A stretch of DNA of 62,155 nt, the filler included, from Hausera hauseri (lineage: Eukaryota), in NCBI GenBank assembly GCA_046269625.1. It is 12 parts of 12 records of this genome, joined end to end, with 100 filler letters (N's around TTAATTAATTAA, not from the genome) between each part and the next. Parts side by side here need not be neighbours in the genome. Positions count along the whole stretch, not along the records: positions 32,077 to 37,294 come from JBJURY010305166.1; positions 37,395 to 43,660 come from JBJURY010119431.1; 10 more parts are not named here. The stretch is one strand, 5' to 3'. Below the pieces are notes generated by a model, which was given only the letters and a program-made list of their open reading frames with translations, was not told the DNA's origin and did not search any database. Positions 1 through 57,183 of the stretch are shown in pieces. The position numbers and the translations under genes are program-made. The stretch's first letter is position 1. Each line of letters opens with the position of its first letter.

Positions 1-3
1 ACG

Positions 4-5000: not shown

Positions 5001-5309
5001 TAAAACCACAGCCTTCGCAATTAATACTACTCTTACCAAAGGTACTAACCATTCACCACTCGAACTTATGTTTGGCCGATTACCGCTTCTACCATTGGAT
5101 ACAAAATTGTTGCCAGCTTCGCTGAAAACAAGTGATCATATGGATAAACAATACCAAAGTTTGTTAACAAGAATTAAAAATTTCCAAAAGGAAGCCAGAG
5201 TTTGAAGAGAAATATAAAGCTGGTTATAAGAAACGATGTAACAAAAAATCTCGTCCACATAAGTATAAAATTGGTGATTATGTTATGATACATTATCCTG
5301 CCGTTAATA
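2030..5309 (+). pseudogene. pol: Ty3/Gypsy pol: aspartic protease, RT, RNase H, integrase (fragmented)
   Basis: AMVDTG at 2076; SPWPSPVV, LDLQSGFWQIP, KTAF, YIDD at 3337; KTDAS..YSTTELELLAI..TDHKAL; HDSHLAGH..W..CATRK; IDICGPFP, VDYYSRY, NGMVERMNR. Confidence 0.95.
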
Positions 5310-13460: not shown

Positions 13461-14968
13461 TTACACATTTATACAGTAATGTCCATATGCGACAATTTTG
13501 TTCCTTGTTATCCACTGACGTTTGTAATCAAATAGGTCAAATGTCTTTTTTTCTCGATTGGATTGTCATCAGCTGATGGTTTTTAGTGCTAATTTGTTCC
13601 TGACCCACAGTGGTGCTGCAACCGGTTTCGTATGCTTGTAAGTAGTTACTGAACTACAAATCGCTTTGTTTTAGATTGATGCCTTTGCATTTGAGGACGG
13701 GTTTGGTTTGGGTTTCGAGGGCATAATATTTTGGTCTGAAGAAAATTGCCTCTTGATATTCAACACAGCCCTTACTTTCGTTTTTAAATTTTCCAATTAC
13801 AGACACAAAACGAGTAGAGTACAGTGGATCACTCTTTTCATAGTTTGAAGTGTTCAACTGTTTATTGGATATCATTGCCGGCAAGAGTTGTGCTCGCAAA
13901 TCAAAACCGTGACATTCAAGAAAGAATCTGTCAGTGTCACCGGCAACAACATTAAGGTCACAACTGAACTGGTGTCTATAGTTCTCCAACTCGATATAAT
14001 TTAGCTTATACATTCGTAACTTGGATAGATCAAGTACGGCCTGACCAATGTATGAGAGTCTATCTAAGGTGACAATGTCATTATCCAGAAGAACAGCAAC
14101 CAGGTCATCTGCTATAATAATGCTCTCTTTAAACTGGGCCATACTAGCATATGTAATTAACTTTTTATCATTATTATACAGTCTCAAATTTAACCTTTTC
14201 AACAGGTTTTCAACTGTTTTCCCATAAAAGCTATTATTCTTAAGCTTAAAGAAGTCTTTTTTGAAAGGATTATTTACTGTAGCCCTCTTTGCAGTATTTA
14301 AGTCAATGTAATCCTTAAAGGCATAACCATGGTCAAACTCAACAGCCCGATGAACATTTTCAACTACTGTGCCTAACTCGATGTACAACTGTAAGAGCCG
14401 ATAGTGAACAACATAGTTGGACTTACGCTCATGTGCCAGCAACAATTTCTTTACTTTAGAACTAGGGGGACATTGGTTAATTGGGGTTAGAGGCAGTTGT
14501 TCCAATTTATCATGTTTGTCAGCTGGAATGCTCAAGTCAACTTCAAAGACTAAGCGTCGTTTTTCCTTAACACAGTCAATGAAAGGTAATGATTGCATCA
14601 GACTAGTCAAAATGTCTTTATCGTAAATCCAAGTCAGATTCGCAAATGGCAAAACTTGTGATAAAGCCCAGCCGTAAAAATTATTCACATCTATATACAA
14701 GAGACTGGTGCTTTCATCTGTTACAACTCTATGCTTATTTACAAAAGTCATACCACCGCTAATTCCCGATTGAAAGAAACTGTACATTTCAGGATCTTGA
14801 ATGAGCTCAATCTTACAAGGACTTGATTTCAATGCTGTGGCCCAAGACAAACCAGGAATAGAAACGAAGTTAACTGCCTCTAATCCATCCTGCAACTTAA
14901 CCTCTTTTCTAAACCGTTCAAAAACATCACCTAACAAGTATACGTCAAGCTTCATATATACCAACATA
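13461..14968 (-). pseudogene. polB: Protein-primed family B DNA polymerase (Polinton/Maverick type), 5'-truncated
   Basis: LDVYLLGDVFERFR..PGLSW..ALK, YIDVNNFYGWAL (motif A), KLKNNSFYGK (motif B), AGDTDRF (degenerate DTDS), KCKGI. After the stop at 13654 homology continues with a frameshift to FDYKR..VAYGHY. Confidence 0.92.
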
Positions 14969-15504
14969 NNNNNNNNNNNNNNNNNNNNNNNNNNNNNNNN
15001 NNNNNNNNNNNNTTAATTAATTAANNNNNNNNNNNNNNNNNNNNNNNNNNNNNNNNNNNNNNNNNNNNATCGTTAAAAAGATATTCAATTTTTGAAAATA
15101 CAATTATTTGTGACAGTGACTTTTCTTACCGCAATCGTGTTTTTTTGGATTTAACAACTAAATTGGTGTCAGATATCAAAAAACAGGTACGATTTAAACC
15201 AAACAACCGTTGTTGTACACTTCGAATATAGGACGTATTCTATATTTAATGTTGAGGTTTGTATACAGATTTGTATTATATGGAACTTATAAAAATTGTT
15301 TTAAAAAATTCTTTAAATATTGTCATTCAAATGTTGGACTCAGTTTTCATCTCTACCTTGGCCCGAATCTCTTGCTCATTGTCAGTGCCGTATTCAATGG
15401 TCATAATGAAGAATCAATTATTTATATGCGCTCAGTTATGCGTTATTTGAATTTATCCTTTTGTTTAGTGTTACGGGCAATTTCTTGTAAACGTATACTA
15501 AACT

Positions 15505-32076: not shown

Positions 32077-33400
32077 GGGTGTAGCTGCCATTGGAATAGT
32101 ATTTTAGATCGGCAGCTTCTGCGCGGCATACTGGACATGTAGTTTTTCCATTCTCTAATGTCCATTTTTCTAAACAGAACCTACAATATTTGGGGCATTC
32201 GTTTTCCTCCTTTTCCCATTTTTTATCGTCTAAATCTACTCTCAGCATAATTTCTATGGGTTCTAGGATTAATCCATCTTCCTCTTGGTATAGGTAAGCT
32301 GCAATTCTTTTTTGTTTGGGATTTATCGAGCTCTTTTTCGGATCACATCCTACAGGTATTAAGGTCCAATCGCTGATAGTATCTCGATCTAAATCGGGAA
32401 CTTCACCAGTCGACTGGTATTTCTGGTATTGCTTCTTTAACATCGCCTTTACTGATTTGTCTACGGGCACCAAGAGTTTACCATTTTTTCTTGATTGAAA
32501 TATCGGGGCAACATATTTTCCTATCTTGGGATTCTCCCAGACGTAGGTATTTTCGTAAACTTGCCGTGCGGGCGTCGCTTTGACAAAGAACATTGCTTCT
32601 TTGATTTTCTGCTTACTATAGTATTCTGTAGCTATTAGCATTCGGGGATGATCTGCTGTGGTAGCGTAATGGACATTTTCCGTGGACGTCTTTTTCCGTA
32701 AGACGTTTATTTCGGTTATGTGTTCTTTTTTGTTGTCCGGTTTCTTCATTGGTTTATTGACGTATATTTGTGTGTCTGGTTTTGAGTTTTCTTCCGTTTG
32801 GTTTTCTCGCTTACGTGTCTGTATGGGTTCTGAACGTTTTCCGATTTTTGTTTTTCTTCTAATCTCCTATCTTCTTGCTTGCTTTTTTTCTTAAATAAAT
32901 AATCAAAGAAGGATGTCTTCCTTTTAGTCGTTTTGCCACTTTCGGTTTCTGGGTTCTTATTGTGTTTCAAATATCTCTGAGAAGTTTCAGGTATTCTAAA
33001 CGGATAATCCTGTGTAGCGTAGCTTGTACTGGGTCCTGCCTGGATTTGCCTTTGATTTTCTATCCTTTTGGTTCTTGATCCTTGTATGATTATTTGATAG
33101 TTCCATTCTGGAATAATCTCGACGCTTCTGGGTGGAGAATATGGGCAAAAATGTCTGCGATAACGTGTGTTTAAGTCTTGGATCCTTGGGAAATTTAGTA
33201 GGTTCTGTCCAGGGTTATTGGGAATCCATTCATGCTCCCATTTAAGCCCAGCATTTATATCCCTTAGGTATTGGGATCTTTGACTGGCGGTTAGTATTCT
33301 ACTGATTTTAATATTTCCTTCTGTCATGACCTCTATCCTTAGCGTAAACCGGCCTTCCGGGGTTAATAGAATATGGCCCTTTCTTTTTTTGTCTTTGATT
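32077..33400 (-). pseudogene. Accessory ORF ending in a C3HC4 RING finger (first half of the RING deleted in this copy)
   Basis: KYCRFCLEKWTLENGKTTCPVCR; the full RING is visible in the paralogue at ~40515-40655. Confidence 0.8.
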
Positions 33401-33409
33401 TGTATTTGT

Positions 33410-34407
33410 TTAAACTACGGTTGGGTGGTATTCCAATTCTCTTATTCCAGCTAAGTGTTCTAGCGGTATGTTTAATTTTCTTATTATTCTTTCTACCTGA
33501 TACCCCACTAAGACGTATCCGCAGAAACATTGTGCCACTTCTTGTTGTATCATTTTGAGATCCTTTCCTTGCTTCAATTGGTCTCTTTTAATTCCAGTGA
33601 CTTCTGCGTACGTTTCGAGTATTTTCTTCCTTGGAGTAATAATCTTTGAATAAATTTCGACTCCGTTCTCTTCCCGAATGGATATTTCGATTGGAATATA
33701 GTCCTCTTCTCCTTCGCCGTAATTTACTGCTACAACCCTAATGTTCCTGTCGTCCGCTACCAACCTGAACGAATATAAATGATTTTGGCGTTCAACTTCT
33801 GTAGGCGTTTGTCTAAATTTTATAGGGGATAGTGCGGTGAGTATTGTTTCTTCTTTGGTCGTTTCGATCATCATTTTGACCGGTAGGGTAGCTATATGAA
33901 ATTCTAGTTTGTAATCCTTGAAATTCCTGATATCGAATACGAACGTACTGAACCGACTCTGCCTTCCTCGGAAGGAATCCCATTTTTGTTCTTTCAGCCG
34001 ATAATATATTTCTCCGTCGGCTAAATGTACGTATATTCTTTGTTGCTCGCCCGATCAATATTGAGCGATCTGTTTAAAGGGATAGACCCTGGCGTCCTTA
34101 TCTTCCCTCCATGCATACAAATATACTGTCCTGGTTTCCTCGGTCATTCCTTTTAGGCCGTTTGGGATTTCGCTGACTTTACCATACTGGGCAAAATTTT
34201 TCCCTTATAATTCATTATTGATTTGTCTGTATATAGATTTGAATTTGGAATTCGCACAGTTACGTTTCTCTGTAGAAATTCGTCGATACTAAGTCGACTT
34301 GCAGCGTTCTCGGTATCGTTTTCAATGTCGACTCTAATTCGGCTCGCATTCTCTCCTGCGTCGATCCTAAGTCGGCTAGAATCCATTTGCGTCTGGTTAC
34401 TTACCAA
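33410..34407 (-). pseudogene. Accessory ORF: unknown N-terminal domain plus REX4/ISG20-like DEDDh exonuclease fold lacking catalytic acids
   Basis: VVAVNYG..ISIREENGVEIYSKIITP..YAEVTGIKRDQLKQGKDLKMIQQEVAQCFCGYVLVGY..IREL follows the REX4 pattern (IALDCE..VSIV..YV.P..VSGI..L..G..VQ.EV..ILVGH..IRDT). Confidence 0.75.
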
Positions 34408-34433
34408 TCTGAAGAAAAAGAGATAAAGGTTAA
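34399..34433 (-). promoter_or_regulatory. Splice acceptor, 4-nt exon and GTAAGT donor (copy A)
   Basis: Minus strand reads TTAAC-ctttatctctttttctt-CAG|ATTG|GTAAGT; the same layout is present in copy B. Confidence 0.65.
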
Positions 34434-34506
34434 TTCTAAAACAAAGGATGGCTTTAAACCAAAACCAATTCTTTGTTTTATGACAGAATAACCTGCTCTG
34501 TAATTG

Positions 34507-35004
34507 TCAGATTATTTTATCATACGGATCTACAGGGTTCTCCAGCTCCCTTAATTCCCACTCTGAATTTTCATGGCGCTTAAAATAACAGTTTTTGGTG
34601 ACTAATCGAAAAATCGCAATTAATATAATGAGAACAACCGTTGACAGCACCGTGATAAATACAATTTGTAGCGTAGATAATCCCATCGGCGCTTGTGTGG
34701 TGACTCGAGTGGTGATCTGCTCATCTATATCCTCGTATGCGTGGGATTCTGTCCGAATCTCATTTAAGGTTAGCAGTGTAATGGTCTGATTCTGTTTATT
34801 CCTTGCACATATTTGTACTATATATTCGGTTTGCGGTTTTAATAAATTGCACTCGGTTTGATAAGTATTGCTAAACAATGTCACCTCTTGATTATTATTC
34901 GTTGTCCGACAATTTATGTATATGTCGTAGTTTTGTTTCTCTTCCACGAAGAACACAATCTTAGATCGATATACCGAATATTTAATGGGAATGCTTTCTA
35001 GCAT
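34507..35004 (-). CDS. FN3-like domain, TM helix and short tail; in-frame continuation of the IN ORF
   Basis: CNLLKPQTEYIVQICA (L.P.T.Y.V FN3 signature) and TM LQIVFITVLSTVVLIILIAIF; separated from the upstream ORF by one in-frame TGA. Confidence 0.8.
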   Translation of the reverse strand: MLESIPIKYSVYRSKIVFFVEEKQNYDIYINCRTTNNNQEVTLFSNTYQTECNLLKPQTEYIVQICARNKQNQTITLLTLNEIRTESHAYEDIDEQITTRVTTQAPMGLSTLQIVFITVLSTVVLIILIAIFRLVTKNCYFKRHENSEWELRELENPVDPYDKII

Positions 35005-37294
35005 TCAGTTCGTAGTGATAATCGTAGTGCTGCGGGTTGTACTCGGCGTTGTGGATGGTTTTCCTGTAGTGGTCGGTTGTAGGAGCTCCCATACTCTGTT
35101 CTTTGGGTGATATCCTCTTAGGAAAACACTTCGTTCACCCGGATAGGTATCGTACAAGTCAAATCGTAGTTCGTACTTTTGTCCTACTTGTACTATGCAG
35201 CAGACTGTGGGACGTCGCTTTGCCAACGAACAATATGTTGGTCTAGGAATAAAGTTGTTAAATGGCGTAAAATGGACTGAGATTTCCTTGTCTTCTGGTA
35301 TTCCAAATTTAGTCTCGATCCGAATGCATTGGTTTCTCAAATCCTTGTGAATTCCAATAATATTATCATCTAAGAGTCTGTTAATCGGATCAGTGCTTTG
35401 AATTATTTCGTCCGTCTTTTCCTGATTGGTGTCCTTTTGTTGTGGCATTTGTATTGTGAGCTCTGAGGCTATGTCGGCTTGAGTTCCAAACTTATAGGAA
35501 TAGAATAGCTGAAAGCTATATCTATAGACTTTCCCGAATTCTAGGTTACAGCATCTCCTGTGGTGTCCGTATGGGAAATCGCATACACTCATTTCATCTC
35601 CAGTGGTTATAAATGTTATCTGAAATCCTATGTGTCTCTGAATAGGATGGTCTGATTCGAACCATGCACATGGCTTTCTCCAATCCATATCCCGTATTCT
35701 GAGTGTCTGTAAATTCCGGATATCCCTTTGTTTGGCGCTTGTTTTCACTGTAGGTATATACGAAACAATTAATGATAAGGCTAAGACTATTTGTACATAA
35801 GATATCGGTCTAGTAACTATCGACGAAGTTTTTACTTCTCGCTGGCGTAAATTGTAACGTTTATTGGGTCGTATTTCCGTCTTGACGACCCTCTGTACTG
35901 ATACTACTTCTTCTTTTCCATTCTTATTGATATACACTGTGGTCGGCGTCACTCGGATGACTTCATACGGTCCTCTACCCGTACGAGTTAATTTCAGCGA
36001 GGTACCTTTTTTGGCTACTGGATAATGTACATAAACCCAATTTCCTTGCTCTATATTATGCGGTTTCGCTTTCTTATCATATTGTTTCTTGAATTGCTCT
36101 TGATATTCTTGAGATAATTCCTTGGCGATTCCCCAACACCTTTTCAATCGCGTTTGTAACACCTCTGCAAAATTTTGTTCTAAATCTTCCGGATTAACTG
36201 TGTATGGTGTCATTCCTAAGTCCGTAGGCAACACGGCTTCACGTCCATACATCATAAAGAATGGTGTAAATCCTGTTGCTGGATGTGGCGTGGTATTAAT
36301 TGCAAATTGTGTTCCTTCTAAAAATTCGTCCAAATCCTTTTGGTCCTTAGCCACTACTGTTGACAATATACGCATGACGGTAGCGTTCATTCTTTCGATT
36401 ATTCCATTACATTGGGGATGATATGCGGTAGTCGTTAATCGCTCGATTTCGAATATCTTAGTGATTTTCTCAAATAATTCACTGGTAAAATTCCTTCCGC
36501 TATCCGTTAATATTTGGTCAGGTGGTCCGTAACGGCAAATAATTCTTCTTACTACAGCTTCTGCCAAGGTTTCCGCTTTTTGATCGACTAATGCTATCAA
36601 CTCGACAAAATGAGTTAATCGATCGATGCACGTTAATATATATTTATTGTTCTTGTGAATTGTAGGAAGAGGTCCTACGATATCCGTCGACATGGCTTGC
36701 ATGGGCCTATCGGGGACATTGATTGGTTTTAATTCGGCCATGTAGTTTTTTGTTTTCTTTTGTTTAGTCGCACACACCTCACAGGCGCTTACCCAATTTT
36801 TTACATCGATATAGATACTAGGCCAAAAATATTTGTTTATTATTCTTTCTAACGTTCTCTTCCAGGACATGTGTCCGGCTAAATACGAGTCATGTTCTGA
36901 CATCAGTACTTCGGTTCGTAAACCTTTTGGGATAACTATCAATTTTCTTCCTTTTCGCTCGTAGTATAAGATGTTTTCTTTGTTTCCATCATTTATGACG
37001 CAATATTTATGTCCGTATCTGCGTAGATGTTTCTTTAACTGTCGCGCTTTTGGTATGATGTCCCTTGTAGCAAATTCTATAATCTGCTGAATAACTTTGT
37101 CGTTTCTTTGTTCCGTTGAAATCTTAATTGTTCTATCTATCGTTAACGCACGTTGGCGGTCTATTATTTCCTCCAGTTGGCCTTTCTTCATTACGGTGAT
37201 TGCACTTGTTTTAGTCCTTAATCTCGATAATGCGTCAGCATCGACATGTTTATTTCCCGGCTTATACTGAAATTCAATATTATATCTGGAAATT
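35005..37294 (-). CDS. pol: Pol C-terminus: integrase fused to a signal peptide, a Cys-containing ectodomain and a Thr-rich stalk
   Basis: YKPGNKHVDADALSRL; HDSYLAGH..CEVC; TDIVGPLP..IDRLTHF..TDSG..YHPQCNGIIER; GPY; then YVQIVLALSLIVSYIPTVKT, two CC-containing repeats and TTTGKPSTTPSTT. Confidence 0.9.
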
Positions 37295-37394
37295 NNNNNN
37301 NNNNNNNNNNNNNNNNNNNNNNNNNNNNNNNNNNNNNNTTAATTAATTAANNNNNNNNNNNNNNNNNNNNNNNNNNNNNNNNNNNNNNNNNNNN

Positions 37395-37470
37395 GCAGCC
37401 TACCTTATTAAATTTCGTGTACGGTACCACAAACAGTTTAACTCTTCATTTCCGTCGAATCCAACAAAAA
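37395..37470 (+). pseudogene. C-terminus of Polinton minor capsid (penton) protein
   Basis: FVYGTTNSLTLHFRR resembles the typical penton ending. Confidence 0.6.
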
Positions 37471-37474
37471 CAAC

Positions 37475-37801
37475 ATGATTGATTCTGAAATCGTATCCAT
37501 TTACAGTAAACCCCAGCAGGGCAGTAAACATCCGTATTTCGTTGGTAAACAGTATGGCTCTGGGTGGTTGCATACATTGGCACGTTTAGCATTTACGGTG
37601 TTGAAACGTATCGGAGCCGTGGCAGCAAAAATAGCATAGGACGTACTATATGAAAACAAATCGATTTTACCATCGTTGAAGGAACATGCATTGACCGAAA
37701 TAAAAAGCGCTGCACCGGGAGTCGTTGAATCAGTTAAAAAACAATTCTCTGGCAGTGGCTTGATGAGAAACGCCGTAGATCAACTAGCTTTTCAACCATA
37801 A
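37475..37801 (+). pseudogene. Polinton small core protein with putative adenain cleavage sites
   Basis: QQGS, QYGSG followed by amphipathic WLHTLARLAFTVLKRIG, and FSGSG; one internal stop. Confidence 0.6.
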
Positions 37802-37850
37802 ACAAACGTCGTTGTCGTACGATTTTCGATTGACTGATTGACAGAGACAA

Positions 37851-39086
37851 ATGACATCTGCAAAATCTGAATTATGTATATTTGACAAAGCGGCGCCACA
37901 AGTTGTTATTGACAATGCGGCATTTGAAAAAATCTGCCCCGTTGATTCGGTTTCAACGGACGATAACATTGACATTCAATGCAACATTATGGAATCGGAC
38001 AATGAATAACTGGATTTGAACAATACGCTACTCTATGTAAAAGTCATTGTTAAAAAGGATTCGTCAACGGTTCTCGCTGCAACAGGCACTGTCACACCGG
38101 CCAATTACCTTTTCCTCACATTGTTATAGGAGACTTCACTGACTCTAAACTGCGTCAAAATTGAAGGCAACACCAGTCTATACAGTATCAAAGCACTTAT
38201 TGAAACTGCTCTGAATTAAAGTGGAGACACAAAAACGACTAATTTGACGAAAACCATCGGATACAATGCCACAGCGGCAAACCGTTAGGCATGGGCAGCA
38301 AAATCAAAAGCACTTACAATGTGTGGACCGCTGTACTTTGAATTTTTCGATCAGCCGAAATACCTACTTCCCGGTGTTAAAGCCATGATTCGGTTGAAAC
38401 GCAGCGACAATGTCTTTTGTTTGAAAACCGCCGTTGCACAGCTTAAACCCATACTGAAAATTATTGAGGCACGATTATACGTACGTCGTGTAAAGGTAGA
38501 ACCATCTGTGCTCATGGGCCATCAATTGGGCTTGGAAACACAAAATGCCTGTAACCCGATACAACGCACAGAACTCGTCTTTTACACCACACCGAAAGGT
38601 TCAACAACGTTTTACAAAGATGCACTTTTTGGCGACATGCGATTGCCGAAATTTGTGCTTGTTACATTTCAAACGACTGTTCGACAAACGGGCAGTTATA
38701 CCGCCAATTCGGAAACGTTTACTCATAGCAATGTGAATTACATCAGTTTGGGTCGGAATGCGGATTTCGTTGAGAAGTACAAATAAGATTTCGAGTCTAA
38801 TGATTATTTTTGAACATATATGCAATCTGTAGTGCACAACATGGGTTTGCTCAACAAAAGCATCACCAATGGCATATCGATGGATTTGTTCAAGTCCGCC
38901 TATCTATTTTTCACCTTCGTGCTGGCTCCGGATTACGATGTTGAACAGACTCAACTACCTCAGAAGGGAAACCTACCACTGGAGGTTCACTTTGCCAAAG
39001 CGTTGGAGCAATCTACCGTGATGTACGTTTACGGTCTATTTGATGCTGAGGTTGAAATAACGAAAAAGGGAACCGTCATTGTTTAA
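37851..39086 (+). pseudogene. Polinton major capsid protein (double jelly-roll)
   Basis: KSELCIFD..PQ..I; LDLNNTLLYVKV; ANYL; GPLYFEFFDQPKYLLPGV..IRLKR..FCL; ARLYVRRV; KGNL.LEVHF.KAL; several stops. Confidence 0.88.
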
Positions 39087-39169
39087 ATAAAATCCGGTGT
39101 GTCTCACTCTTTCTTCTTCGTCGTCGTACTATGAAGTAACTTATTACTACTATTACTATTATACTTAAT

Positions 39170-39531
39170 TCACATTTAGCTCCACCGAGCTCATTCGCCA
39201 CGGAAAACTGCTCTTGGGCGTGAAATTTCGTTGCGTGTTTCCACTAGACCGTGTGCCGCGTGATTTACGAAAAGCCGGTGGCTTTATCGTCAATACACAC
39301 ACTTCATCGTTGCCGGACGAACATTGGATTGCTGTGTACGTTCACCATCCAACCAACGTTTTCAGAGTATTCGACACGCTCGAATTTTGCTATCCGTCAT
39401 CGTTATTTTCTCAAATTGAACGGCAAAAATCATACCGTGTTGAATATAATCGGGTTCATTATCAACATCCAATGACTATACTGTGTGGACATTACTGCTT
39501 ATTGTGGCTTACATTACAATCACTTTTCTGA
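39170..39531 (+). pseudogene. Adenain-like cysteine protease
   Basis: F..VFPLD, FIVNTH..PDEHWIAV, VFD, YQHP..LCGHYC (His-Asp-Gln-Cys catalytic residues). Confidence 0.9.
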
Positions 39532-40278
39532 AATATGTGTGTTACAGTGGGGGTAGCCCTTACCGTCTCCCACTATAACAATGTTTTCACTTGAATTTAG
39601 TTTTCTGTATCAACAGGTTAGGACTATTCGTTCTCGAATAGTCTGTTTGTACCTTAAGATTTTATTTGAAATTATACAGTGATGCCTGTACTGTTTGCAA
39701 TAACAAATGCATGCCTCAATTTACCAATTCTTGTCTTGGCTATAGATTTTACGTTGATTTTATCCTTGGGATAGTCTAATTGTCTTTAAGAGACGATGCG
39801 AAACTATATGAGGGGTTTAAATGAAACAAATTTTAATCACCTTTTATTTCACAACTCCACCACAAGATTTCAACATGATCACGAATAAGTTCAGTAGCGA
39901 TAGTCAATAACAATACTATTTCAATTCGGATTTGTTCTAATCGGCTTTAAGGTCGATAGTCGTTTTCCGGTTCATTTTTTTGTCTCTTTTCAGTTGTTCA
40001 CGATCTGCTTATATAGCAGCATGACCGTATCTGGTTAATTTTATTTACAATTTTTTCTAAATTTGTTTTGCATTTTTCTTCAATTATTTGCGTTGTTTAT
40101 TTCAGAGTTACTTGTCAGTTTTAAATTCAGTAAACATCATGATTTATATATCTGTAGAAAACTTCAATCTATTTACATATTGCCATATTCCGGTTTAATT
40201 CTAAATTTATTTTTCTAAATTTATTTTCAGCAGTCGTAATCAGTACAGTCTGATTACAATCGATGCATGTTCAGCTAT

Positions 40279-41729
40279 TTATATCTCTCCTCCCTGAGCG
40301 GCATCCTCGAAAGAGCCTACTGCGTCAGAATAGGTGACGCCTAACGGCCTGGGTTGTCTCAATTGATTCTTTCTTTCTTGTAGATCCGTTTGGGAATCTA
40401 GTTGGCCTTGACTGGTTAATGGACTCGTCTCCAGATTGTAACTATGGTAGGGCTTGATTCGAACAACTCGGGTGTAACTTCCGTCGGAGTAGTATTTTAA
40501 TTCAGTGGCCTCTGCCCGACACACTGGAAATGTTGTTTTTCCATTGTCCAGTGTCCACTTTTCCAGACAATCTCGACAGTATTTGTGGCGGCAGATCTTG
40601 TTATCCAAAACCACGTAACCTTGTCTCAGGTTGCCATCGCATACAGAGCATTCATTATCTTCTTTGTCCCATTCGTCTCTATCTAAGTAAACATGGATCG
40701 TTAATTCAATGGGTTCGAACACAAGATCATCTTTGTCTTGATACAGGTATCCATGAATTACTTTCTGCTTAGGGTTAATTGAACTTTTTCGTGGGTCACA
40801 GTTTACTTCTATTAGTGTCCAGTCTGCCATAAGGTCTCGATCTAAATTGGGAATTCTTCCTTCTATTCGATATCTTCGATAATGTTTCTTTAGCAATATC
40901 CGGATTTGCTTATCTACCGTAACTATTACTTTTCCTCTCCTCTTAGAGCGGAAGACTGATGTGAGATAATTTCTTAACTTAGGGTTTTCCTTAAACATAT
41001 GTATTCTCGAAGACTTCTCTTCCTGGGGCAACTTTAATACAAAACATGGCTTCTTTGATCATTTTTTGCTACAGTATTCTGTAGTTGTCAGCATTCTGGA
41101 TAAGTCCTGAGTCGTTTTATAATGGACATCTTCCTTGATATTCTTTCCTACAAGGACACTTACTTCGGCTATCATGGATTTCCTATTTTTCTTCTCTACA
41201 GATTTTACTTTCTGGGAGGTATTTGGTTTGTCTTGTGGGTTTTCATCTTGTGGCTTCTCGTCTTCTCCTTTCTTCTTAAATAGATATTCATAAATAGACA
41301 GCGTTTCCTTGGACTGGAGCTTTTCTTCTAATTTTGTTTCTTTATTATTGTTTTTGCCCTCGATTCCCTTTTGTTTTCTGCCAGAAAATTTGGGGTTCTA
41401 TTAAGCATTTTGTCTTCCTTTTTGATCGCTTGTAATACCGTTTTATTTTTCTCTTGTTCTTCCATAGGTTCTTGTACTGTGATCGTAAGACTATGGCTGC
41501 CCATCGACTGGCCACTTCTGATCGGAGAATATTGTTTGACATTCCTTTTGTATTTGGTATCTATTAATTCGGGCTTCAAGAAGCTGTGCAAATTGTATAT
41601 CGGATTTTTAGGGGCCAATTCATGTTTCCACTTTAATGGTTTATAAATTTCCTGCAGATATTTGGAGCGTTGGCTAGCCGTTAGAAGTCTCGGAATTATA
41701 TTCGAGTCATTGCTTATTGCTTCAATCAT
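40279..41729 (-). pseudogene. Accessory ORF with C-terminal C3HC4 RING finger
   Basis: CSVC-x13-CRHKYCRDC-x11-FPVCR (copy A has CPVCR); frameshifted. Confidence 0.85.
40284..40295 (-). promoter_or_regulatory. Polypurine tract marking the 3' end of the internal region of copy B
   Basis: TTCGAGGATGCCGCTC-AGGGAGGAGAGA-TATAAAT on the minus strand, at the end of the RING ORF. Confidence 0.6.
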
Positions 41730-41733
41730 TAAC

Positions 41734-42674
41734 TTAAAGAAGGCTTCTGGAGCGGTCGGTCGATTTCTTTTTTTGTTCGGTTCCTTCCATTCGTTCTTGG
41801 ATTATTGGATGAGTGGCCATTTCCCTAAGTCCGGCAATATTTGAATCGGATATTTCTAGTAACTCGACGGATCGTTGCACGTTATATCCGGCCAACATAC
41901 AACCATGCAGACAATGATCCAACTCTGAGCGAATTTGTCTACTGTTTTTTCCTCTTATGAGCTGCTCTCTTCTTAAACCGGTTACTTCTGCATATGATTC
42001 TTGGACATGTTTCCGGGGGCTTATGATTGTAGCGTATATTTCGATCCCATCCCTTTCTCTAATAGATACTTCGAAGGGTATTCCATATCTATCATCTCCT
42101 CTGCCACAATTTATCGCGATGATTCTTATATTGCGACCATCTTGGAATAGTTTATATGACTGACGATGTTCATCCTCTTCTACCTCAGTTGAAATTTGTT
42201 CAAATTCTAGGGCTGGCAAGTGTAGATTACAATCTTCTCTGTAGGTCACTTCGAACATAAGTTTGACAGGAAGGGCTGCTACTCTAAATTCTCGGCCGTA
42301 TTTGACACGTTCCAAACCTTGTCTGTTTATTTTAAATGTACTGAACCGGTATTGATGTCCTTCGTTGGAGTTCCAAGGTTGGTTTTTTATTCTATAATAT
42401 AGTTCTCCGTCGGCTAAGTGGATGTATATATCTTGAGTTTTAGCTGGTCGGTTTTGGATTAATTCCTTTAAAGAGTATCCTTTAGCTTGATTATCTTCGC
42501 GCATTGCGTAAAGGTAGACTGTACGATTCTCCTCTATAATGCCTTTTAGATCATTGCGGATTTCGCTGATTTTTAAAATTTCGATATAGGTTTTTGCTTG
42601 TAAGGCTTCGGTTATCCGTCTGTAGATAGATTTCGATTTTGGAATAAATACTGTCGGTTATCCATACTTACCAT
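41734..42674 (-). pseudogene. N-terminal domain plus inactive REX4/ISG20-like exonuclease (copy B)
   Basis: IIAINCG..VSIRERDGIEIYATIISP..YAEVTGLRREQLIRG..CLHGCMLAGYN..LREM. Confidence 0.75.
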
Positions 42675-42700
42675 TCTAAAAAATAGAAAATAAGGGTCAA
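42666..42700 (-). promoter_or_regulatory. Splice acceptor, 4-nt ATG exon and GTAAGT donor (copy B)
   Basis: Minus strand reads TTGAC-ccttattttctattttt-TAG|AATG|GTAAGT. Confidence 0.68.
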
Positions 42701-42772
42701 TCCTAAACAAAGTATTGTGCTAAATCTGAACCAATTCTTTGTTAGATGGTGGAATAACCCGATCTGTAATTG

Positions 42773-43660
42773 TCAGGTTATTCCATCATTGATTTTCCCC
42801 TGTGGCACCATGACCCTTAATTCCCTCTCAATATTTTTAGGACGCTTATTACAGCAGTTGTTGGTAATAAATCGTCAAAACGCAATAAAAATTATGAGTG
42901 CAAACGTTGACGTTCCATTAATCGATATTATTGTCAAGGTTGTCCATTTAGTTAGTTTTTGTGTTTTAGCGGCAGTCGTAATTTCATCTTCCATTTCCTA
43001 GTTAGTTAGTGGTTTCGTTAAACCAATCTTATTTAGAGTCCGTACCATAAACGTTTTACTTTGTTTATTCTCTGCACCTATTTGTATTATATAGTCTGTT
43101 TTGGGTTTTAAATAGGTACATTTGATTTGATGGCTACCCTTGGCCAGTATCACTTTCTGATTATTATGTTATTATTATAATGTTCGGCAGCTTATTTTTA
43201 CGTCGCATTTAAGTGTTTCTTCCACTACAAACGTTATCTCATATTGTTTTGTTCAATATTTTACAGGAATCATTTCTAGATCCTTCTGAGGTAACCCGGT
43301 TGTTCGGAGGATTCTGGTGGAAGTTGAAGTAATTGTATTCGTCTTCGCAGTCGTAACTCTGCTTGATACCATCTTAGGTGGAATTCTCCAAATTGGACTT
43401 CCCAATTAGTAACTTCCCAGGAAAATACTCGACTGGTTTGGTCGAACTTTATATAAGTCTAATCGATTTCTATATTCATATACCTGAGGCAACTTACAAC
43501 ACTTATTCGGTTTTTCGGCGTGGATCTGACAATACTGCTGATTATGAGCTTCCTTGTCCTTTTCCATGAATTGAACCGTGATTACTCTTCTTTTCATTAA
43601 CCGTCCTTTTGTGTTTATTTGGACACAGTTGTTCTTTGGGTCTTTCGTTATACTAGCCAT
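42773..43660 (-). pseudogene. Ectodomain - FN3 - TM membrane protein (copy B)
   Basis: NNCVQINTK..YC..KCC..YEYR; Thr-rich stalk; CTYLKPKTDYIIQIGAENK; hydrophobic segment followed by NCCNKR. Confidence 0.78.
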
Positions 43661-50770: not shown

Positions 50771-51157
50771 CTAATTTAAATCCTTCAAACCAGTTATAAC
50801 AATTTTCCCCGTATGAAAGACATTTACACATAGAGGATTATAACAAGTTAATCTTAGTGCAGGAAATAATTCTGGTTCATAGAGACTGGGGCTATTCCTC
50901 GCCAATGTGTTGAGATCTATGGGTTCACCAAAATTACATGTCACTGTAATTGATTGTATACCCACAATTGAAATATTGTAGGGCAAACTGCATGAATCAA
51001 TGGGCTTTTTACATCCCTTTATTCGACATTTTTCATTGGAAAATAATATAATGGTATATTCTGGGTATAGTAAAACACACTGTTTAGGTCTACATCCGAA
51101 TTTGATTTCATCCAATAAAACTGTAGTGAAATCTTTGCAGTTGATATTGCTTAGCAT
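50771..51157 (-). CDS. Small divergent TATA-binding-protein-like ORF
   Basis: TIILFSNEKCRIKG (repeat 1); IQSITVTC..IDLNTLA..YEPELFPAL..VNVFHTGKIVITG (repeat 2). Confidence 0.8.
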   Translation of the reverse strand: MLSNINCKDFTTVLLDEIKFGCRPKQCVLLYPEYTIILFSNEKCRIKGCKKPIDSCSLPYNISIVGIQSITVTCNFGEPIDLNTLARNSPSLYEPELFPALRLTCYNPLCVNVFHTGKIVITGLKDLN

Positions 51158-51774
51158 TTTTTGTAAAAATGAGTGGGGAGTTATTGATTTATATAATTTT
51201 TGAATTTATTTTCTGATAGAGCTTCTATGCATAATAAAATCTTAAAGTTTTAAGAAAAAAACATGACATACAACAAAAAACGAAATCGCTGTACAATAGT
51301 TTAGATTAAATCCTGAACTTGAAACCAAATTTCATAACTGTCATATACCAAAATTACTGCTGAATTTCTAAATTAATTTCATGTCAGCCATATTAATATC
51401 TAGTTAAAAATTCAAATCAACTGAAATTGCACTTTAACAAGAGTAAAGTACACAGAAAATTATGATGCAACAGTTGTGAGCCAGTTGCAAATGATGTATC
51501 GCTCTTTCATGGTGCCGACATTTTTTTGAAATCAAATAAGCAAATGTGGCATTTTCTAATAATTTGCAGAATAACGGTGATATAGAAAATTTTAAGATAT
51601 GAATTTAAACCGATGGATTGTTTTGAAATAGTAGGCAAAACTTTTCTTAACCTTGTTTTATTGAAATTGATGACGGTTAAAATTGACTTAATTGATATTT
51701 CAATAATTTTTCAGAAGTAATCATATGGTATATACAAAGGTTGATGAATGTTTTTCGGCCACGGACTTCTGGTT

Positions 51775-52010
51775 CTTCATTATTTCTGTTGGCAAACCCC
51801 AAGTATCTTGGAATGATTCTCGATTCCTTGTTATCGTGTGCAGCGTTTCCAACTAATTCCAAAACTTCATCGGACAAGTGTTCAAAAACAGCAGCCAAGT
51901 AAACTGATGTACGGGATCCAACTCGTTCAGCGTTGTTTCCTTTTCTCAGAAGTCCGGAGATTCTTCCGACTGGGGGTTGAAGGCCAATTTTGCAATTTCT
52001 GCCTTTGCTT
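51775..52010 (-). pseudogene. H2A: Histone H2A fragment embedded in an unrelated ORF (51677..52252)
   Basis: [63 protein letters not shown]. Confidence 0.9.
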
Positions 52011-53601
52011 TGAGTTGTTGTTTCTTTAACTAAGTTTTGTTTAACGATTTTGTCCGTAATCAGCGTTGTTCCGACATTCTTCGAATAATGATCACCAATA
52101 GGAACTGGATTGTTGATTGGAATCGGCTGTCTAACATGTTCGTCGACATTCACAAATGTATCGGCATTTTCAATTAAAATATCGTTCGCGTAATCAAATA
52201 ATTTATCTTTAAAGATCGGATAGGACGTATGAATAAGTGTGGAAAATTGCACTTTCTTGTTCAGTATCAGCGTTCCTAATAAATTGATTTTCCTTTTTCT
52301 CGTACAAAAAAAGCAATAGTCAATTTTTTTTCAAAAATCTCTATCCAATTTTAATTTAACGTTTCAAACAAAATCACTAAATTCAATATTGCCAATTGGT
52401 CAGGTGAATCCGGCCGATTCGTAAATTTTTATTTTTATTTCACGAACTCTCAATTTAATTAATTTGTTTGATCCAATAATTCTAATGCTCTGTGAAGAAA
52501 TATCTGGGACCTCACGCAGCCACAACAGCAGGGTTAAATCGCTTTTTGCCTGAAGTATAATTAACGGATANNNNNNNNNNNNNNNNNNNNNNNNNNNNNN
52601 NNNNNNNNNNNNNNTTAATTAATTAANNNNNNNNNNNNNNNNNNNNNNNNNNNNNNNNNNNNNNNNNNNNACATACAATCAAATCGTCCCAAACAGTCTT
52701 CCTAAAGATCGTGCAGGCCCACACCGAACAGAAAAGTGGACACTGACGATAAACAAAAAATACAACTGATAGGTGTCAAAAAATATTTCCGAACAGAACC
52801 AACAGGAAAAAAAAAACTAACAGGTATAAATTTGATGCATGTTCGCTTTAGAAGCAATAGTTTTCTCAGTGCTGTCGTATTTGTCCTCCCTTTGTTTCAT
52901 TCAATTGTTCTATTTTTTTCTTTTTACTCGGTACCTTTTATTGTTACTCTATTGTTCCTGCTTTTTGTCTGTTTCTTTTATATTGCTTTTGCTGTTGTAT
53001 TAACGCAACACACTGAACTTTGCTGTGATTTCCCTTTTCTAATAATCAGAGAGAACAACAGTCGAGTACACAAATGAATACAGGCAAATACATTTGAACG
53101 AGAGGTGAGGAGAGACATACACTGATGACAATTTATTCTATACCTTCCATTGCAGGAACAATCAAAAAAAATAAAAAATAAAAAAGTAAATCCTAACAGA
53201 CATGCACATGATATATGTTCATGTTGAAAAAGAATGCTATTTGTAATGTGTTTGTATTATTCTTATTTTCATTTATTTTCAGTATTTTTTACTTTTTCTT
53301 GGTTTGCTGTTTCTATTGTTTTTTTGTTTTGTTTCCCATTGTTGTGACAATGGAATAAAATGAGGATGTCCCTGAATTCTCTTAGTATGAAGGACAATAT
53401 AACAGTAAGAAAAACATGAGAAAAAAGAAAAAGAGATGTTCAAACGAGTGATGAAAACTGACAGGTACTAAGGATCATTCATTCTTTACCTTCCGGTTCG
53501 AGAAAAACAAATGTTGTATGCGCAACATCACATTGTAACATTCATAAATAGTAATTGGATGTTGATGAGATTATATGATATAAAGATGGTTAATGCTGTC
53601 A

Positions 53602-55707
53602 CTACCCACCACGCGGCCTTTCTCGACCTGAATCAGGTGTCCTACTTCGTTTTCGAGTTGGAGACTCTCCAACAGGGACAGGTCCATCAATCTGTTCATA
53701 CACAACCGCAACATTCTTCTTACTGAATCCAATGCCAATAAGCAGAAACTTCTCGACTCCGCGGTTTTGCGCTGCAGCGACATACTTTTTCTCCTCAATT
53801 TGTGCCAAACCAGCTTCTGCCGCTTTTTCAAGCTCTCTCACCGACATCTCATCGTCTGCTAACTTAGTGCTGCGAACTTCCTGTAACTCAAATATGATAC
53901 AGCGCTTTTCCCTCTCGCATTCAATTGCTAGGTCATAAAACCCGTCTCCACTTACCTGATTTGATGTGACAGTATAGTTCTCATTTTTGTATAAATAGAG
54001 AACGAATCCGAGCATTAGCCCGTGGTAAAAGGCCTCACATTCACGACCAACATCGCGAGAACTGACAACTCGTTTAATTATTTTACGCAAACCTATTTTG
54101 AAATCACTCATCTTTCCTTCTATTAGATTGTTAATGAAGTCTCTCATCCATTGACCATCAGCAGCGTTAGAAAGCCAGCTCATGGTAATATCTTCAAATA
54201 TCGTTATAACCTCCGCATTCGGAATTGTCAACGAATAGTTCCACTTTTCTTTAATAAGCGTCCGTCCTTCAATCTTCAAATAGCCTGTCATGAGTAAAAG
54301 GACGAAGATCATGGTTGGAGAATTCTCTATGTTCTCAAAAGTAATATACTCATTAACCTCGATCGGTTCCAATTTGCCTTTCAACAGCTTTACCAAATCC
54401 GCCTTGAAATAATAACAGGATTCCTTTAACAGCTTTAGAATTACCTTGATGTCACCAGACTTTGCCCAATATGCATCTACAGACCTTCCATTGCAAAGCT
54501 TAGAAATACAGAAAGGACAATACAGTGTTCTCTCCCCGACAAGGTATCCATTATAACATGCCTTCGCAGCCCCCAACTGATTAAACGATCCATAGTGCTC
54601 CAGCATAGCCTTGGTCTCCTCCTCTGTGAATCCAAAATACGGAGCATATCTATCATGTAGCACAGTACGCAGCCTCATATTATTGAGGCCAGAAAAAATG
54701 CTGTCGTTAGCAATCGGCGCAATTCCCGTGAGGACCGCCTTCTCCAAGTAATCATTGCTCTTTAGTGCATGAAGTAACAGTCCATTCATAAAAATTGACA
54801 TGTCGTCATAATATCTCCCACTGTAGGCATTGTGGAATGGAGCGTCGTACTCGTCGATTAATAAGTACGGCTCTTTTCCATGGTAATCATACAAATACCG
54901 CACAAGATTCCCAATGGCGTTTCTCACGTCAATTTTGTCCGCCTCCTTATAAATGATCGCTTGGATCAGCTTCTTGTCCCATGGTTTTAACGTCTTACCA
55001 TCGAGCAAATAAGCATGTTCTTTGTATGAATCAGCGACGCACGTCTCGAGAGCCTTATAGGCGGTCTGATATGTTTCCCCATCGACACCCTTAAGCGAAA
55101 TAAAGATCACTTGGTACTGACCTTGGTGTTTTTTGCATATCTCATGATCTGCTGAAATTCTCAGCTTCTTAAACAGATTTTTCGTCTCTATACCATTCAC
55201 TGTCCTGGAAAGAAAACACCATAACATCCTCATGTTAAGGGTTTTCCCAAAACGCCTGGGACGAGTGATGACAACGACTTTGCCATCTAATATAACATCC
55301 CTGATGAACAAGCTCTTATCCACAAAGTATATCTTTTCCGTTATAAAGCTCATAAAGTCGTCATCGGCATCCTCTATCCCCCTTTCAGCACTTTCGACGA
55401 CTCCTGTGGAAGTCTCATTAGCATCACTGGAGATATTTTGCTCATTATTTCTACGATTCATAAACAGCGAAATAGGAGAGATAAGAAAAGAATATATCTT
55501 CCTCAGAGTGCTTCGTACGATTTCGGGGGAAGGATCAACCCTCACCGCGACACTTTGACTTCCCGCGGCAGAAGGAACAATAGTTTCTGTGCTATTTCTG
55601 CCCTCCATGACTAAAGGATCAAACCTCTCCGCGACACTTTGACTTCCCGCGGCGGACGGGTCAATAGCATTCCTGGACTTGTTTTGCTTCTTATTTCTAC
55701 GCGTCAT
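53602..55707 (-). CDS. Bacterial-type AAA-ATPase-like plus PD-(D/E)XK nuclease-fold protein, intact ORF
   Basis: YFVDKS, ITRPRRFGKTLNM (Walker A), LLIDEYDAP (Walker B), LTGI..SGLNN, FGFTEEE, YNGY, LLMTGYL, IPNAEV, EAFYHG, SNQVSGDGFYDLAI..IIFELQ, ALAQI-like GLAQIEEKKY. Confidence 0.92.
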   Translation of the reverse strand: MTRRNKKQNKSRNAIDPSAAGSQSVAERFDPLVMEGRNSTETIVPSAAGSQSVAVRVDPSPEIVRSTLRKIYSFLISPISLFMNRRNNEQNISSDANETSTGVVESAERGIEDADDDFMSFITEKIYFVDKSLFIRDVILDGKVVVITRPRRFGKTLNMRMLWCFLSRTVNGIETKNLFKKLRISADHEICKKHQGQYQVIFISLKGVDGETYQTAYKALETCVADSYKEHAYLLDGKTLKPWDKKLIQAIIYKEADKIDVRNAIGNLVRYLYDYHGKEPYLLIDEYDAPFHNAYSGRYYDDMSIFMNGLLLHALKSNDYLEKAVLTGIAPIANDSIFSGLNNMRLRTVLHDRYAPYFGFTEEETKAMLEHYGSFNQLGAAKACYNGYLVGERTLYCPFCISKLCNGRSVDAYWAKSGDIKVILKLLKESCYYFKADLVKLLKGKLEPIEVNEYITFENIENSPTMIFVLLLMTGYLKIEGRTLIKEKWNYSLTIPNAEVITIFEDITMSWLSNAADGQWMRDFINNLIEGKMSDFKIGLRKIIKRVVSSRDVGRECEAFYHGLMLGFVLYLYKNENYTVTSNQVSGDGFYDLAIECEREKRCIIFELQEVRSTKLADDEMSVRELEKAAEAGLAQIEEKKYVAAAQNRGVEKFLLIGIGFSKKNVAVVYEQIDGPVPVGESPTRKRSRTPDSGRERPRGG

Positions 55708-57183
55708 AACTAATGAAATAAGAAAGAAATAGAAAAAAATGAGAAAACAATGAAAACGAAAGGCAAACAAACTAGCAGTAACACAAATAACAAACAGTGT
55801 CAGAATGAAAAGTAGATAAAACAGCTGCTAAAATACTCCGTGTACCTTCAACTGCCCTCGCTGTTCCCGTGAGTAACTCTGTAACCCATCACTCTCAACA
55901 CACACTAAGACGCACCACAGTTATTTGATGTTACTAGCCTCTGACCTTTGACATGCCGTGTTATTCACAACAACAAAACGCACTTCCATCATCCCTAATT
56001 GATTGATATTCAATTGAAGCGCGTTATCAGCGCCTTTCCAAAGACTACCCACAAACCCCATGCGGCAGAAAACAAACAAACAGACAAAACGAGTAACTTG
56101 CCGCAAAATCTACCAGGCCACACACAACCAACAACTACGACGAATCCTCCTTGATCCACATATACACCACACACACGCACATACACCGTGGTGTATAAAG
56201 TTGTCCAGCTATTCACTGCATGGATCACATTTTGCACATGTCGTATCAGCACACTATATAAATATTGGAAGGATTTGTCATACTGTCATTGCAGTAGGGA
56301 TATAGTTTTTTGATGGGATGAAAAAATGATCAGCGAAACCGCCCATTAATAGTCGTCACATATATCGCTATTGATTCATCCTTCACAGCGCTAGTTATGT
56401 GTCTATTTATTGCTCTAATGAGAAATCAATTGATCATAACATACACCCTAATTGATCACGAACAATAACCATTTTTTAACCAAAAATTTTTACAGTGAAA
56501 AAAAGGCTGCACACGATGCAATTCGATGATGCGACCATACGCACTCGCAGCAACAACTCGCCTCACGTTTTTGTCAAAACACACCATACATCCAGAAACA
56601 GATCCGTACACATACACATCAGGGCGACAACCGCGTGTGTAACACAAGTTGAAAAGAGAGTGAGAGGCGGAGCAACAGAGAGAGTGGGGAGACAAATGAA
56701 CAAGAAGCTGACCTAGTAAAGCAACAATAGAAAAAAAGAAGCGCACAACAAAGAGCTAGAAACCTACTGATCTGCATGCGTGTTTGGAAGATTCGCAGAC
56801 AGCCCAATATCACAACCAATGATTGCTCCAGCCGTGTTAATAAAATCCCCCTCACTGTTCACAGTGCAAAGCCCCGCAAGAGTAAAAAGGACGGTGGTAT
56901 CCTGCAAGCGGAAGACAATCATGCTATTCAACCAGAAAGAGGTAAAATAAAATAAGGACGACTTATCTTACATTTAATGTGGGCATCCTAAGTATATAAT
57001 AGACGTATGTACAGACATCCCTGACATGGGAGAGATATCAGCGATAAAATCAATATATAATAATAACGTAAAAGTAATTTGANNNNNNNNNNNNNNNNNN
57101 NNNNNNNNNNNNNNNNNNNNNNNNNNTTAATTAATTAANNNNNNNNNNNNNNNNNNNNNNNNNNNNNNNNNNNNNNNNNNNNC

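Follow-up and report, generated by a model that had tools for sequence, protein, structure and literature searches.

A lineage of Ty3/Gypsy retrotransposons in Hausera hauseri very probably carries a selected cargo of two genes between its integrase and its 3′ end. The window, the whole stretch of 62,155 nucleotides that was analysed, consists of 12 contigs joined by N-spacers and contains two copies of this element: copy A, which makes up the whole of contig 7 (32077–37294), and copy B at the end of contig 8 (40279–43660). Translation showed that both are dead, diverged Gypsy copies with stops and frameshifts in each, and their 5′ halves fall outside the window. As stated in the original prediction, the two copies lie on different contigs and keep the same cargo order; tblastx and blastn showed them to be collinear on the minus strand with identical part order. 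In copy A, this order runs from the end of RNase H and the integrase through an in-frame signal peptide, the surface protein, an acceptor-like site, an exonuclease-like region, a basic linker and an uncharacterised domain to the RING. The cargo had been described as a three-function cassette. However, it comprises two genes, not three, because the nuclease-like domain and the RING form one protein in P0001, an intact public relative that shows the whole accessory protein of ~870 aa. Elsewhere in the window, pieces of ADAR lie beside another Gypsy element on contig 4 (Pfam).

The cargo is placed inside the element because the integrase borders it in copy A, while a polypurine tract (PPT) and a candidate LTR border it in copy B. 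In copy A, an open frame at 35830–37293 (minus strand; Pfam and translation) encodes the end of RNase H and, downstream of it, a Ty3/Gypsy integrase with H2C2, rve and GPY motif (Pfam Integrase_H2C2 3.6e-18, rve 1.1e-13), which nests among Gypsy Pol proteins. The surface protein follows in frame, so the cargo is indeed anchored to the integrase. At the other end, the accessory ORF of copy B runs into the predicted PPT, a run of 12 purines at 40284–40295 (minus strand) that overlaps its last codons, and then into a candidate 3′ LTR of ~744 bp (39540–40283, minus strand; folding z −3.3). The C-terminus of P0001 is the same QGGE motif as the end of the copy B ORF. The candidate LTR ends in CA, has a 41-bp terminal hairpin and a non-canonical 5′ dinucleotide (no TG), and has no partner LTR within the window; at its outer edge (39520–39583) unitig depth drops. 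The adjoining flank (37395–39535, plus strand), a very deep repeat according to unitig depth, contains a decayed Polinton/adintovirus-like capsid, recognised by eye, and protease (weak Peptidase_C5 match, E 0.087), and was apparently cut by the insertion of copy B.

The first cargo gene encodes a surface protein of ~430 aa (copy A, 34507–35808, minus strand; sequence and model) built from two Cys-rich β-sandwich domains, a Thr/Ser stalk, a fibronectin type III (FN3) domain, a transmembrane helix and a short tail, with one in-frame stop at 35005–35007. It starts with a hydrophobic segment in frame with the integrase (35743–35808, minus strand; hydropathy 2.27, a helix in the model), which is predicted to be an internal signal peptide, and the transmembrane helix lies at 34588–34674 (minus strand; hydropathy 3.12, pLDDT 87–88). 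The membrane-proximal domain (34750–35001, minus strand) was aligned with fibronectin by VIA-align with a Z of 10.2 and an rmsd of 2.3 over 83 residues; it also gave a profile match to neogenin (E 0.002), and FN3 proteins account for 8 of its 13 profile matches. The FN3-like membrane protein that had been predicted thus holds for this domain, with FN3 fold, signal peptide and transmembrane helix all present in copy A, whereas the two distal sandwiches are not firmly FN3: they show a β-strand pattern in a low-confidence model (pLDDT 30–50), matched nothing in the PDB, and did not match the proximal domain in a profile comparison. Comparison of repeat 1 with repeat 2 of the protein gave 4/2000 in a shuffle test. 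In copy B, translation and alignment to copy A revealed the broken 3′ part of the gene (second sandwich, stalk, FN3 and transmembrane helix) at 42773–43660 on the minus strand. No Pfam family matched the surface protein at E 0.01, and no homologue was found among proteins of 1335–3810 aa, the length range covered, which is weak evidence.

It had further been proposed that these copies and the fusogen-bearing element of contig 1 belong to one lineage. The latter is a separate element (1–5309, plus strand) with a gB-type fusion gene upstream of the protease and a decayed pol (Pfam Monjiviricetes_fusion 6.2e-25, RVP, H2C2 and rve); it ends inside the integrase, and no cargo is visible up to this contig end. 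The integrase strings said to be common to copy A and contig 1 are present, the two integrases are 36% identical, and they are sisters in both trees (FastTree 97, IQ-TREE 95/75), although in the careful tree their branch carries no star, and that of contig 1 is long. Among 120 long proteins, the best BLAST relatives of the copy A integrase are P0058 (305 bits) and P0059 (301 bits; next 258), both single-ORF Gag-gB-PR-RT-RH-IN proteins in which the integrase is followed in frame by [YF]NLR and then by a signal peptide that leads into a secreted cargo. Copy A has YNLR at 35845–35856, and by a criterion set after seeing both, its [YF]NLR-signal peptide junction is common to only 2 of 112 proteins, namely P0058 and P0059. 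The post-integrase cargoes of P0058 (Cys-rich) and P0059 (Ig) are not homologous to that of copy A, as tested for P0059. The contig 1 gB finds its best match in P0058/P0059 (1e-37), and P0074 also has gB between gag and protease. The single lineage is indirectly supported by the sister grouping and by the Gag-gB-Pol relatives with cargo, but neither copy A nor contig 1 groups with P0058/P0059 in either tree, and for the contig 1 integrase alone P0058 ranks only tenth. Combined, these sequence comparisons tip slightly towards a gB-type fusogen upstream of pol in the lineage of copies A and B. gB and the FN3 cargo occur together in no sequence examined, the 5′ halves of A and B lying beyond the window.

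The in-frame slot after the integrase holds env itself in P0062 and P0131 (gB) and in P0070 (F-type). Since relatives keep env in this slot, the FN3 protein may have taken over from env instead of being added to it; it would then work alone in an element with no fusogen, for instance by keeping host cells attached to one another for direct cell-to-cell transfer or by receptor block. The separation of copy A from the Gag-gB-Pol proteins in both trees is in line with such a replacement, as is the lack of a visible gB on contigs 7 and 8, where only the 3′ halves of the copies are covered. In contrast, BLAST ranks as closest two full-length proteins that have gB upstream together with a second cargo in the slot, and in the trees the integrase nearest to that of copy A belongs to the gB-bearing contig 1. 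FN3 proteins are also not known to have fusion activity, and overall this fusogen-free arrangement seems rather unlikely. If instead a gB-type fusogen lies upstream, the polyprotein would run through the integrase into the internal signal peptide, as the frame in copy A indicates, and host signal peptidase would likely free a type I membrane protein whose ectodomain contains FN3. On the surface of the particle or cell, this protein may serve as the contact or receptor-binding partner of the fusogen.

The two genes are separated by a conserved non-coding spacer (34395–34520 in copy A, folding z −3.6; 42665–42785 in copy B, folding z −5.2; both minus strand). The copy A spacer contains a branch-point-like signal, a pyrimidine tract, an AG at 34409–34410 and GTAAGT at 34399–34404, and that of copy B contains an AG ending at 42676, then an ATG overlapping GTAAGT. 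Splice signals had been noted in both copies, and the acceptor-like AG is present in each. Rfam gave no match to the spacer, and a shared RNA fold is unproven because only 1 of 26 pairs is compensatory in the consensus structure from these two sequences. The signals suggest that a spliced subgenomic RNA likely makes the ~870-aa protein via the conserved acceptor.

The accessory ORF is broken in both copies. In copy A (32077–34240, minus strand; tblastn of P0001), it is interrupted by stops and frameshifts and cut by the contig end, and encodes an uncharacterised β-rich domain, a DnaQ-like pseudo-nuclease, a basic linker, an uncharacterised domain and half a RING. Copy B (40279–42654, minus strand; Pfam and tblastn of P0001) contains the same domains, with the RING at 40516–40656 (minus strand; zf-RING_2 6e-06). 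Across this ORF, P0001 is 43–47% identical to each copy. A C3HC4 RING had been assigned to both copies; a RING is found in each, but it is intact in neither, since copy A lacks 20 residues and Phe replaces the seventh cysteine in copy B, and the C3HC4 form with all eight zinc ligands is that of P0001 (Pfam 2.6e-7). The fold model of P0001 is poor (pLDDT 38.6), and its fold search matched only RING/U-box folds, in agreement with a RING fold; a LINE ORF1-like RRM is a tentative reading of the N-terminal domain, on which this model and these matches do not bear either way.

The nuclease-like assignment comes from recurrent but weak matches of the middle domain to DnaQ (E 1.2e-4, the best), PolC (6e-4), ISG20L2 (0.13) and SDN1 (0.38), and from a weak Pfam RNase_T match (0.078). 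At ExoI (in either register) and at ExoII, Asp/Glu is absent in all three sequences (A, B and P0001). These weak hits point to a DEDDh-like pseudo-nuclease of the DnaQ type, in keeping with the REX4/ISG20-like domain of the original prediction. A DnaQ-like domain without catalytic acids and a C3HC4 RING are joined in one protein. Among 1.84 billion representatives, only one of the 43 matches to the accessory protein was full-length, the others being RING only or noise, and the whole protein had no cellular homologue. Three scans of viral contigs yielded no relative of the locus, and metagenome contigs yielded two RING-only matches (39–52% over 31–53 residues), judged unrelated.

From this architecture, the DnaQ-like domain would hold on to RNA, or to a protein of an RNA pathway, without cutting it, and the RING would bring in an E2 to ubiquitylate the bound target. 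An adaptor-type E3 acting against host RNA silencing or surveillance is a possible reading, which we hold tentatively and consider somewhat less likely than not for this class of target. The accessory protein might also serve the element's own cycle, by shielding the RNA 3′ end, in particle assembly or in Gag ubiquitylation for budding; the DEDDy ORF3s of bdelloid elements were suggested to act in processing the ends of the element's RNA (PMC5408684). A pseudo-nuclease that keeps its fold could cap RNA ends, and the long basic linker suits RNA binding. However, most Gypsy elements manage to replicate with no gene of this kind, and viral RING ligases often destroy host factors. The observations made here fit both readings alike, and a role confined to the element's own cycle seems rather unlikely.

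The cargo evolved under purifying selection, as had been proposed from its protein-level conservation. Between copies A and B, protein identity is 30–84%, and pN (0.08–0.51) is lower than pS (0.55–0.80) in 8 segments, with synonymous sites saturated; one surface segment, with a frameshift and only 6 aligned codons, was dropped from this count. Thousands of diverged unitigs (<420 bases) cover the cargo, and their depth is greater in the integrase and surface-protein regions than in the accessory ORF, although depth cannot rank genes. Passive carriage of a host mRNA captured by template switching, for which the cellular origin of FN3, DEDD and RING domains and the ADAR pieces on contig 4 could speak, is highly improbable and largely refuted by this selection, by the missing cellular homologue of the accessory protein, by the ORF–PPT overlap in copy B with the same terminal motif in P0001, by the in-frame fusion of surface protein and integrase, and by the many diverged unitigs.

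Taken together, the best explanation, to which we give an even chance, is a Ty3/Gypsy lineage with two selected accessory genes and a likely gB fusogen upstream. A bolder reading, which we consider improbable, is that a lineage of invertebrate Gypsy elements has arrived along a separate path at a complex-retrovirus organisation. It would combine a class III fusogen preceding pol, a pseudo-nuclease-RING ligase, made from a spliced RNA, for degrading a small-RNA defence factor of the host, and a second, exchangeable surface protein (FN3 in the present copies, Ig for P0059, Cys-rich for P0058) that is fused behind the integrase and handles attachment on its own, in the manner of herpes- and paramyxoviruses. 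Gag-gB-Pol order and exonuclease capture are published, and no report of this combined cargo was found in the literature. To our knowledge, invertebrate env-bearing retrotransposons are otherwise described only as gag-pol-env. The finding of three unrelated versions of a second surface protein at one fixed but exchangeable position behind the integrase suggests that these elements can assign fusion and attachment to separate proteins. Few element-encoded counters to animal RNA silencing are known, and the pseudo-nuclease-RING protein, being under selection, is a candidate, which is testable because P0001 is an intact natural protein.

Chary and Hayashi (eLife, PMC13524379) reported GAG-ENV-POL errantiviruses with HSV/gB-type Env from flatworms, nematodes and bryozoans. 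Contig 1, P0058, P0059 and P0074 resemble them in having gB between gag and protease, and the copy A integrase is closest to P0058/P0059; the main text makes no mention of fibronectin, exonuclease, RING or an accessory/additional ORF. Because the authors looked 3 kb downstream of the POL stop codon and list no LTR for 8 of 9 flatworm elements, cargo in these elements may be unannotated, suggesting that they deserve a look downstream of the integrase. In the giant planarian Gypsy elements Burro/GYPSM1 (PMC6431247), env lies between gag and pol, and further domains are tied to ubiquitination/apoptosis, among them a RING-type motif. Their extras (MATH, BIR, BCL2, ankyrin, SUMO-like) lie upstream of the protease in an ORF of ~4,900 aa, whereas the present cargo follows the integrase and has no Pfam match to any of these five. 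An orchid Gypsy with an AlkB m6A demethylase ORF (PMC9289625) likewise has a constant additional ORF, which was suggested to counteract control by the host at the RNA level, but its host is a plant, its enzyme is active in vitro, and it has no membrane protein or RING in the text available. EXD1 and Maelstrom, which have the DEDD fold but not its canonical catalytic set, take part in piRNA biogenesis (PMC5408684); they are host genes and resemble the pseudo-nuclease by analogy only. In the bdelloid Juno and Vesta elements (Rodriguez et al. 2017, PMC5408684), the ORF3 after pol encodes a DnaQ-superfamily exonuclease or a small transmembrane protein and is typically spliced. As far as the consulted part describes it, this ORF3 is DEDDy-type with intact catalytic residues, usually of one type per family, with no RING or FN3; such an exonuclease is absent in copies A, B and P0001. 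In contrast, the nuclease-like domain of the present cargo is DEDDh-like, has lost its catalytic acids, is fused to a RING and stands beside a second cargo gene.

Among the 12 contigs of the window (4-7 kb each, with N-spacers between), two copies of a Gypsy element lie on the minus strand. Copy A makes up contig 7 (32077-37294), copy B takes up the final 4 kb of contig 8, and neither is intact any longer. They are collinear by tblastx, while their blastn alignment consists of five patches with 65-84% identity. Half of the words of copy A are present in one public run. Furthermore, 11,215 short unitigs align to copy A at an identity of at least 80%, most of them less than 95% alike, and cover 30 of 30 bins, indicating a large, diverged repeat family. 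To compare the copies, nine codon-aligned segments were tried, of which one did not align and eight (38-275 codons) were used. Protein identity ranged from 30 to 84%, pN from 0.08 to 0.51 and pS from 0.55 to 0.80, and third codon positions were the most different in all eight. Where dS was defined, dN/dS was 0.27 and 0.39. Although the protein-guided alignment biases pN low in this test, the pattern is nonetheless clear and reads, at the sequence level, as past selection acting on replicating elements. The predicted selection on the cargo is thus borne out.

Copy A contains an open frame of 762 codons with an RNase H end and a Gypsy integrase (H2C2, 3.6e-18; rve, 1.1e-13), which runs stop-free from the integrase via YNLR to a hydrophobic segment. 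Downstream of the integrase, a type I membrane protein of about 430 aa was translated with X in place of one stop. Two Cys-rich segments are followed by a Thr/Ser stalk and a third domain, and a TM helix with a short tail closes the protein; the similarity score between the Cys-rich segments was reached by only 4 of 2000 shuffles. The single-sequence model (mean pLDDT 46.5) shows three strand-rich domains, of which the one nearest the membrane has a fibronectin type III match (FN3; Z 10.2, rmsd 2.3, 83 residues), with FN3 proteins the majority type among 50 fold-match rows. A two-sequence profile of this domain retrieved neogenin (E 0.002), and 8 of its 13 matches were FN3 proteins. The FN3 assignment concerns this domain; the two distal ones gave no PDB match and no profile match to it.

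Past the stop codon of the membrane protein, about 120 non-coding bases agree between the copies at roughly 70% of positions (counted on the alignment), in contrast to the saturated synonymous sites. Both spacers contain a branch-point-like word, a pyrimidine tract, AG, four bases and GTAAGT, a layout from which splicing would be predicted. Their folding beats 200 of 200 shuffles in each copy (z -3.6 and -5.2), but only one of 26 pairs in the consensus is compensatory, and no Rfam match was obtained. A short repeated segment (34296-34392) opens the accessory ORF of copy A, where several unitigs have about 15 bases instead; the N-terminus is length-variable.

Searching 1.84 billion representatives with the RING-bearing ORF of copy B gave 43 matches, of which a single one covered the full query (P0001; E 9.5e-54, 46%), the others being RING-only or noise. 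P0001 is an unnamed, single-member protein of 870 aa encoded on a 16.2-kb contig, and no further relative of similar length was found for it. Its alignment with A and B begins at about residue 67 and extends as far as the RING or the end, so that the nuclease-like domain, linker, unknown domain and RING form one protein. The original prediction of a conserved three-function cassette therefore needs amending: the cargo of this Gypsy lineage is real and selected, but consists of two genes. The middle domain gave repeated but weak DEDDh nuclease matches (DnaQ, E 1.2e-4; PolC, 6e-4; ISG20L2; SDN1), and at ExoI and ExoII acidic residues are absent from all three sequences. P0001 has a complete RING (Pfam 2.6e-7), and RING/U-box folds came up in its fold search (best Z 6.5), whereas 20 RING residues are missing from copy A and one cysteine from copy B. 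The whole-protein model of P0001 is poor (pLDDT 38.6).

In copy B, a 12-purine tract (40284-40295) overlaps the last codons of the accessory ORF. P0001 shares the QGGE end motif of this ORF and so probably adjoins its own PPT. The tract is followed on its 3' side by about 744 bases with CA at the end, beyond which lies decayed Polinton-like protease sequence, and at this junction the summed unitig depth shifts by more than one order of magnitude. This fits a candidate 3' LTR inserted in a Polinton; its 5' dinucleotide is non-canonical, and the window holds no partner LTR. The end of this candidate LTR forms a 41-bp hairpin with 12-bp arms (39540-39580, minus strand, TG start and CA end, z -3.3), possibly a U5 stem or else a very small element of its own. 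Capsid and protease genes of Polinton/adintovirus type, now decayed, occupy 37395-39535, with unitig cover far deeper than that of the retroelement. Elsewhere, contig 10 has TBP-like and histone H2A-like pieces (50771-52330) and contig 3 a DNA polymerase-like frame (13654-15012; recognized by eye, no Pfam match), which may be remains of a large DNA virus or a Polinton. An open 741-aa frame at 53602-55827 (AAA-ATPase_like, 3e-37; PD-(D/E)XK nuclease, 2e-9) shows a domain architecture of bacterial type within a contig of animal DNA. ADAR fragments (dsRBD, deaminase), interspersed with other host-like pieces, occupy 16599-17823 in contig 4, upstream of a Gypsy element; as animal-type content, they indicate a metazoan source.

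In contig 1, a separate element has a gB-type gene ahead of the protease (Monjiviricetes_fusion, 6.2e-25); this contig ends inside the integrase and thus cannot show cargo, while in copies A and B any gB region would lie outside the sequence. Among the longer relatives listed for the frame of copy A (120 of 247 matches), the best by BLAST were P0058 and P0059 (305 and 301 bits; next 258), each a single ORF in which Gag-gB-PR-RT-RH-IN leads into [YF]NLR, a signal peptide and secreted cargo: a Cys-rich region with TM helix in P0058 (residues 2431-2694) and an Ig domain in P0059 (residues 2457-2774). This suggests a swappable second surface-protein slot after the integrase; in other relatives, env itself occupies it. 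The P0059 cargo showed no homology to that of copy A. Among 112 listed matches aligned to the integrase end, 18 have the motif, and only P0058 and P0059 have it beside a hydrophobic segment, a junction shared by copy A under a criterion set after the fact. The gB of contig 1 also has P0058 and P0059 as best matches (28%, 1e-37). Neither integrase tree grouped copy A with these two proteins. FastTree (108 matches plus three window rows) placed A and contig 1 as sisters (97), as did IQ-TREE (37 hand-picked matches plus the same rows) at 95/75 without a star; in the latter tree the branch to contig 1 is long and the backbone is not resolved. The control element of contig 6 was placed elsewhere. 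The proposed single lineage for A and contig 1 is plausible; at 36% identity they are different families at best. On balance, we lean slightly towards a gB link of the copy A/B lineage.

The functions of both cargo genes are put forward here as inferred roles. Most likely, the polyprotein would be cut by signal peptidase, freeing the FN3 protein to act as a contact module at the surface, and splicing would give an RNA for an adaptor-type E3, in which the inactive nuclease domain would bind RNA or an RNA-pathway protein. Since inactive DEDD proteins act in piRNA biogenesis (PMC5408684), mimicry of piRNA-pathway proteins by this domain is a reasonable guess by analogy. It would fit equally well that the accessory protein handles the element's own RNA instead.

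GAG-ENV-POL elements with gB are already on record from nematodes, bryozoans and flatworms; the main text of that paper (PMC13524379) does not mention fibronectin, exonuclease, RING or accessory ORFs. In rows 1445-1453 of its supplement 1, eight of nine flatworm GAG-ENV-POL elements have no listed LTR inside the 3-kb extension, one possible cause being long 3' cargo that went unannotated. In the literature accessible without subscription, we found no published report of an LTR element with a pseudo-nuclease-RING ORF or with integrase fused to an FN3 protein. Multi-domain cargo is known from Burro and an AlkB ORF from an orchid element, and the rotifer ORF3 exonucleases have intact active sites, in contrast to the three sequences described here.
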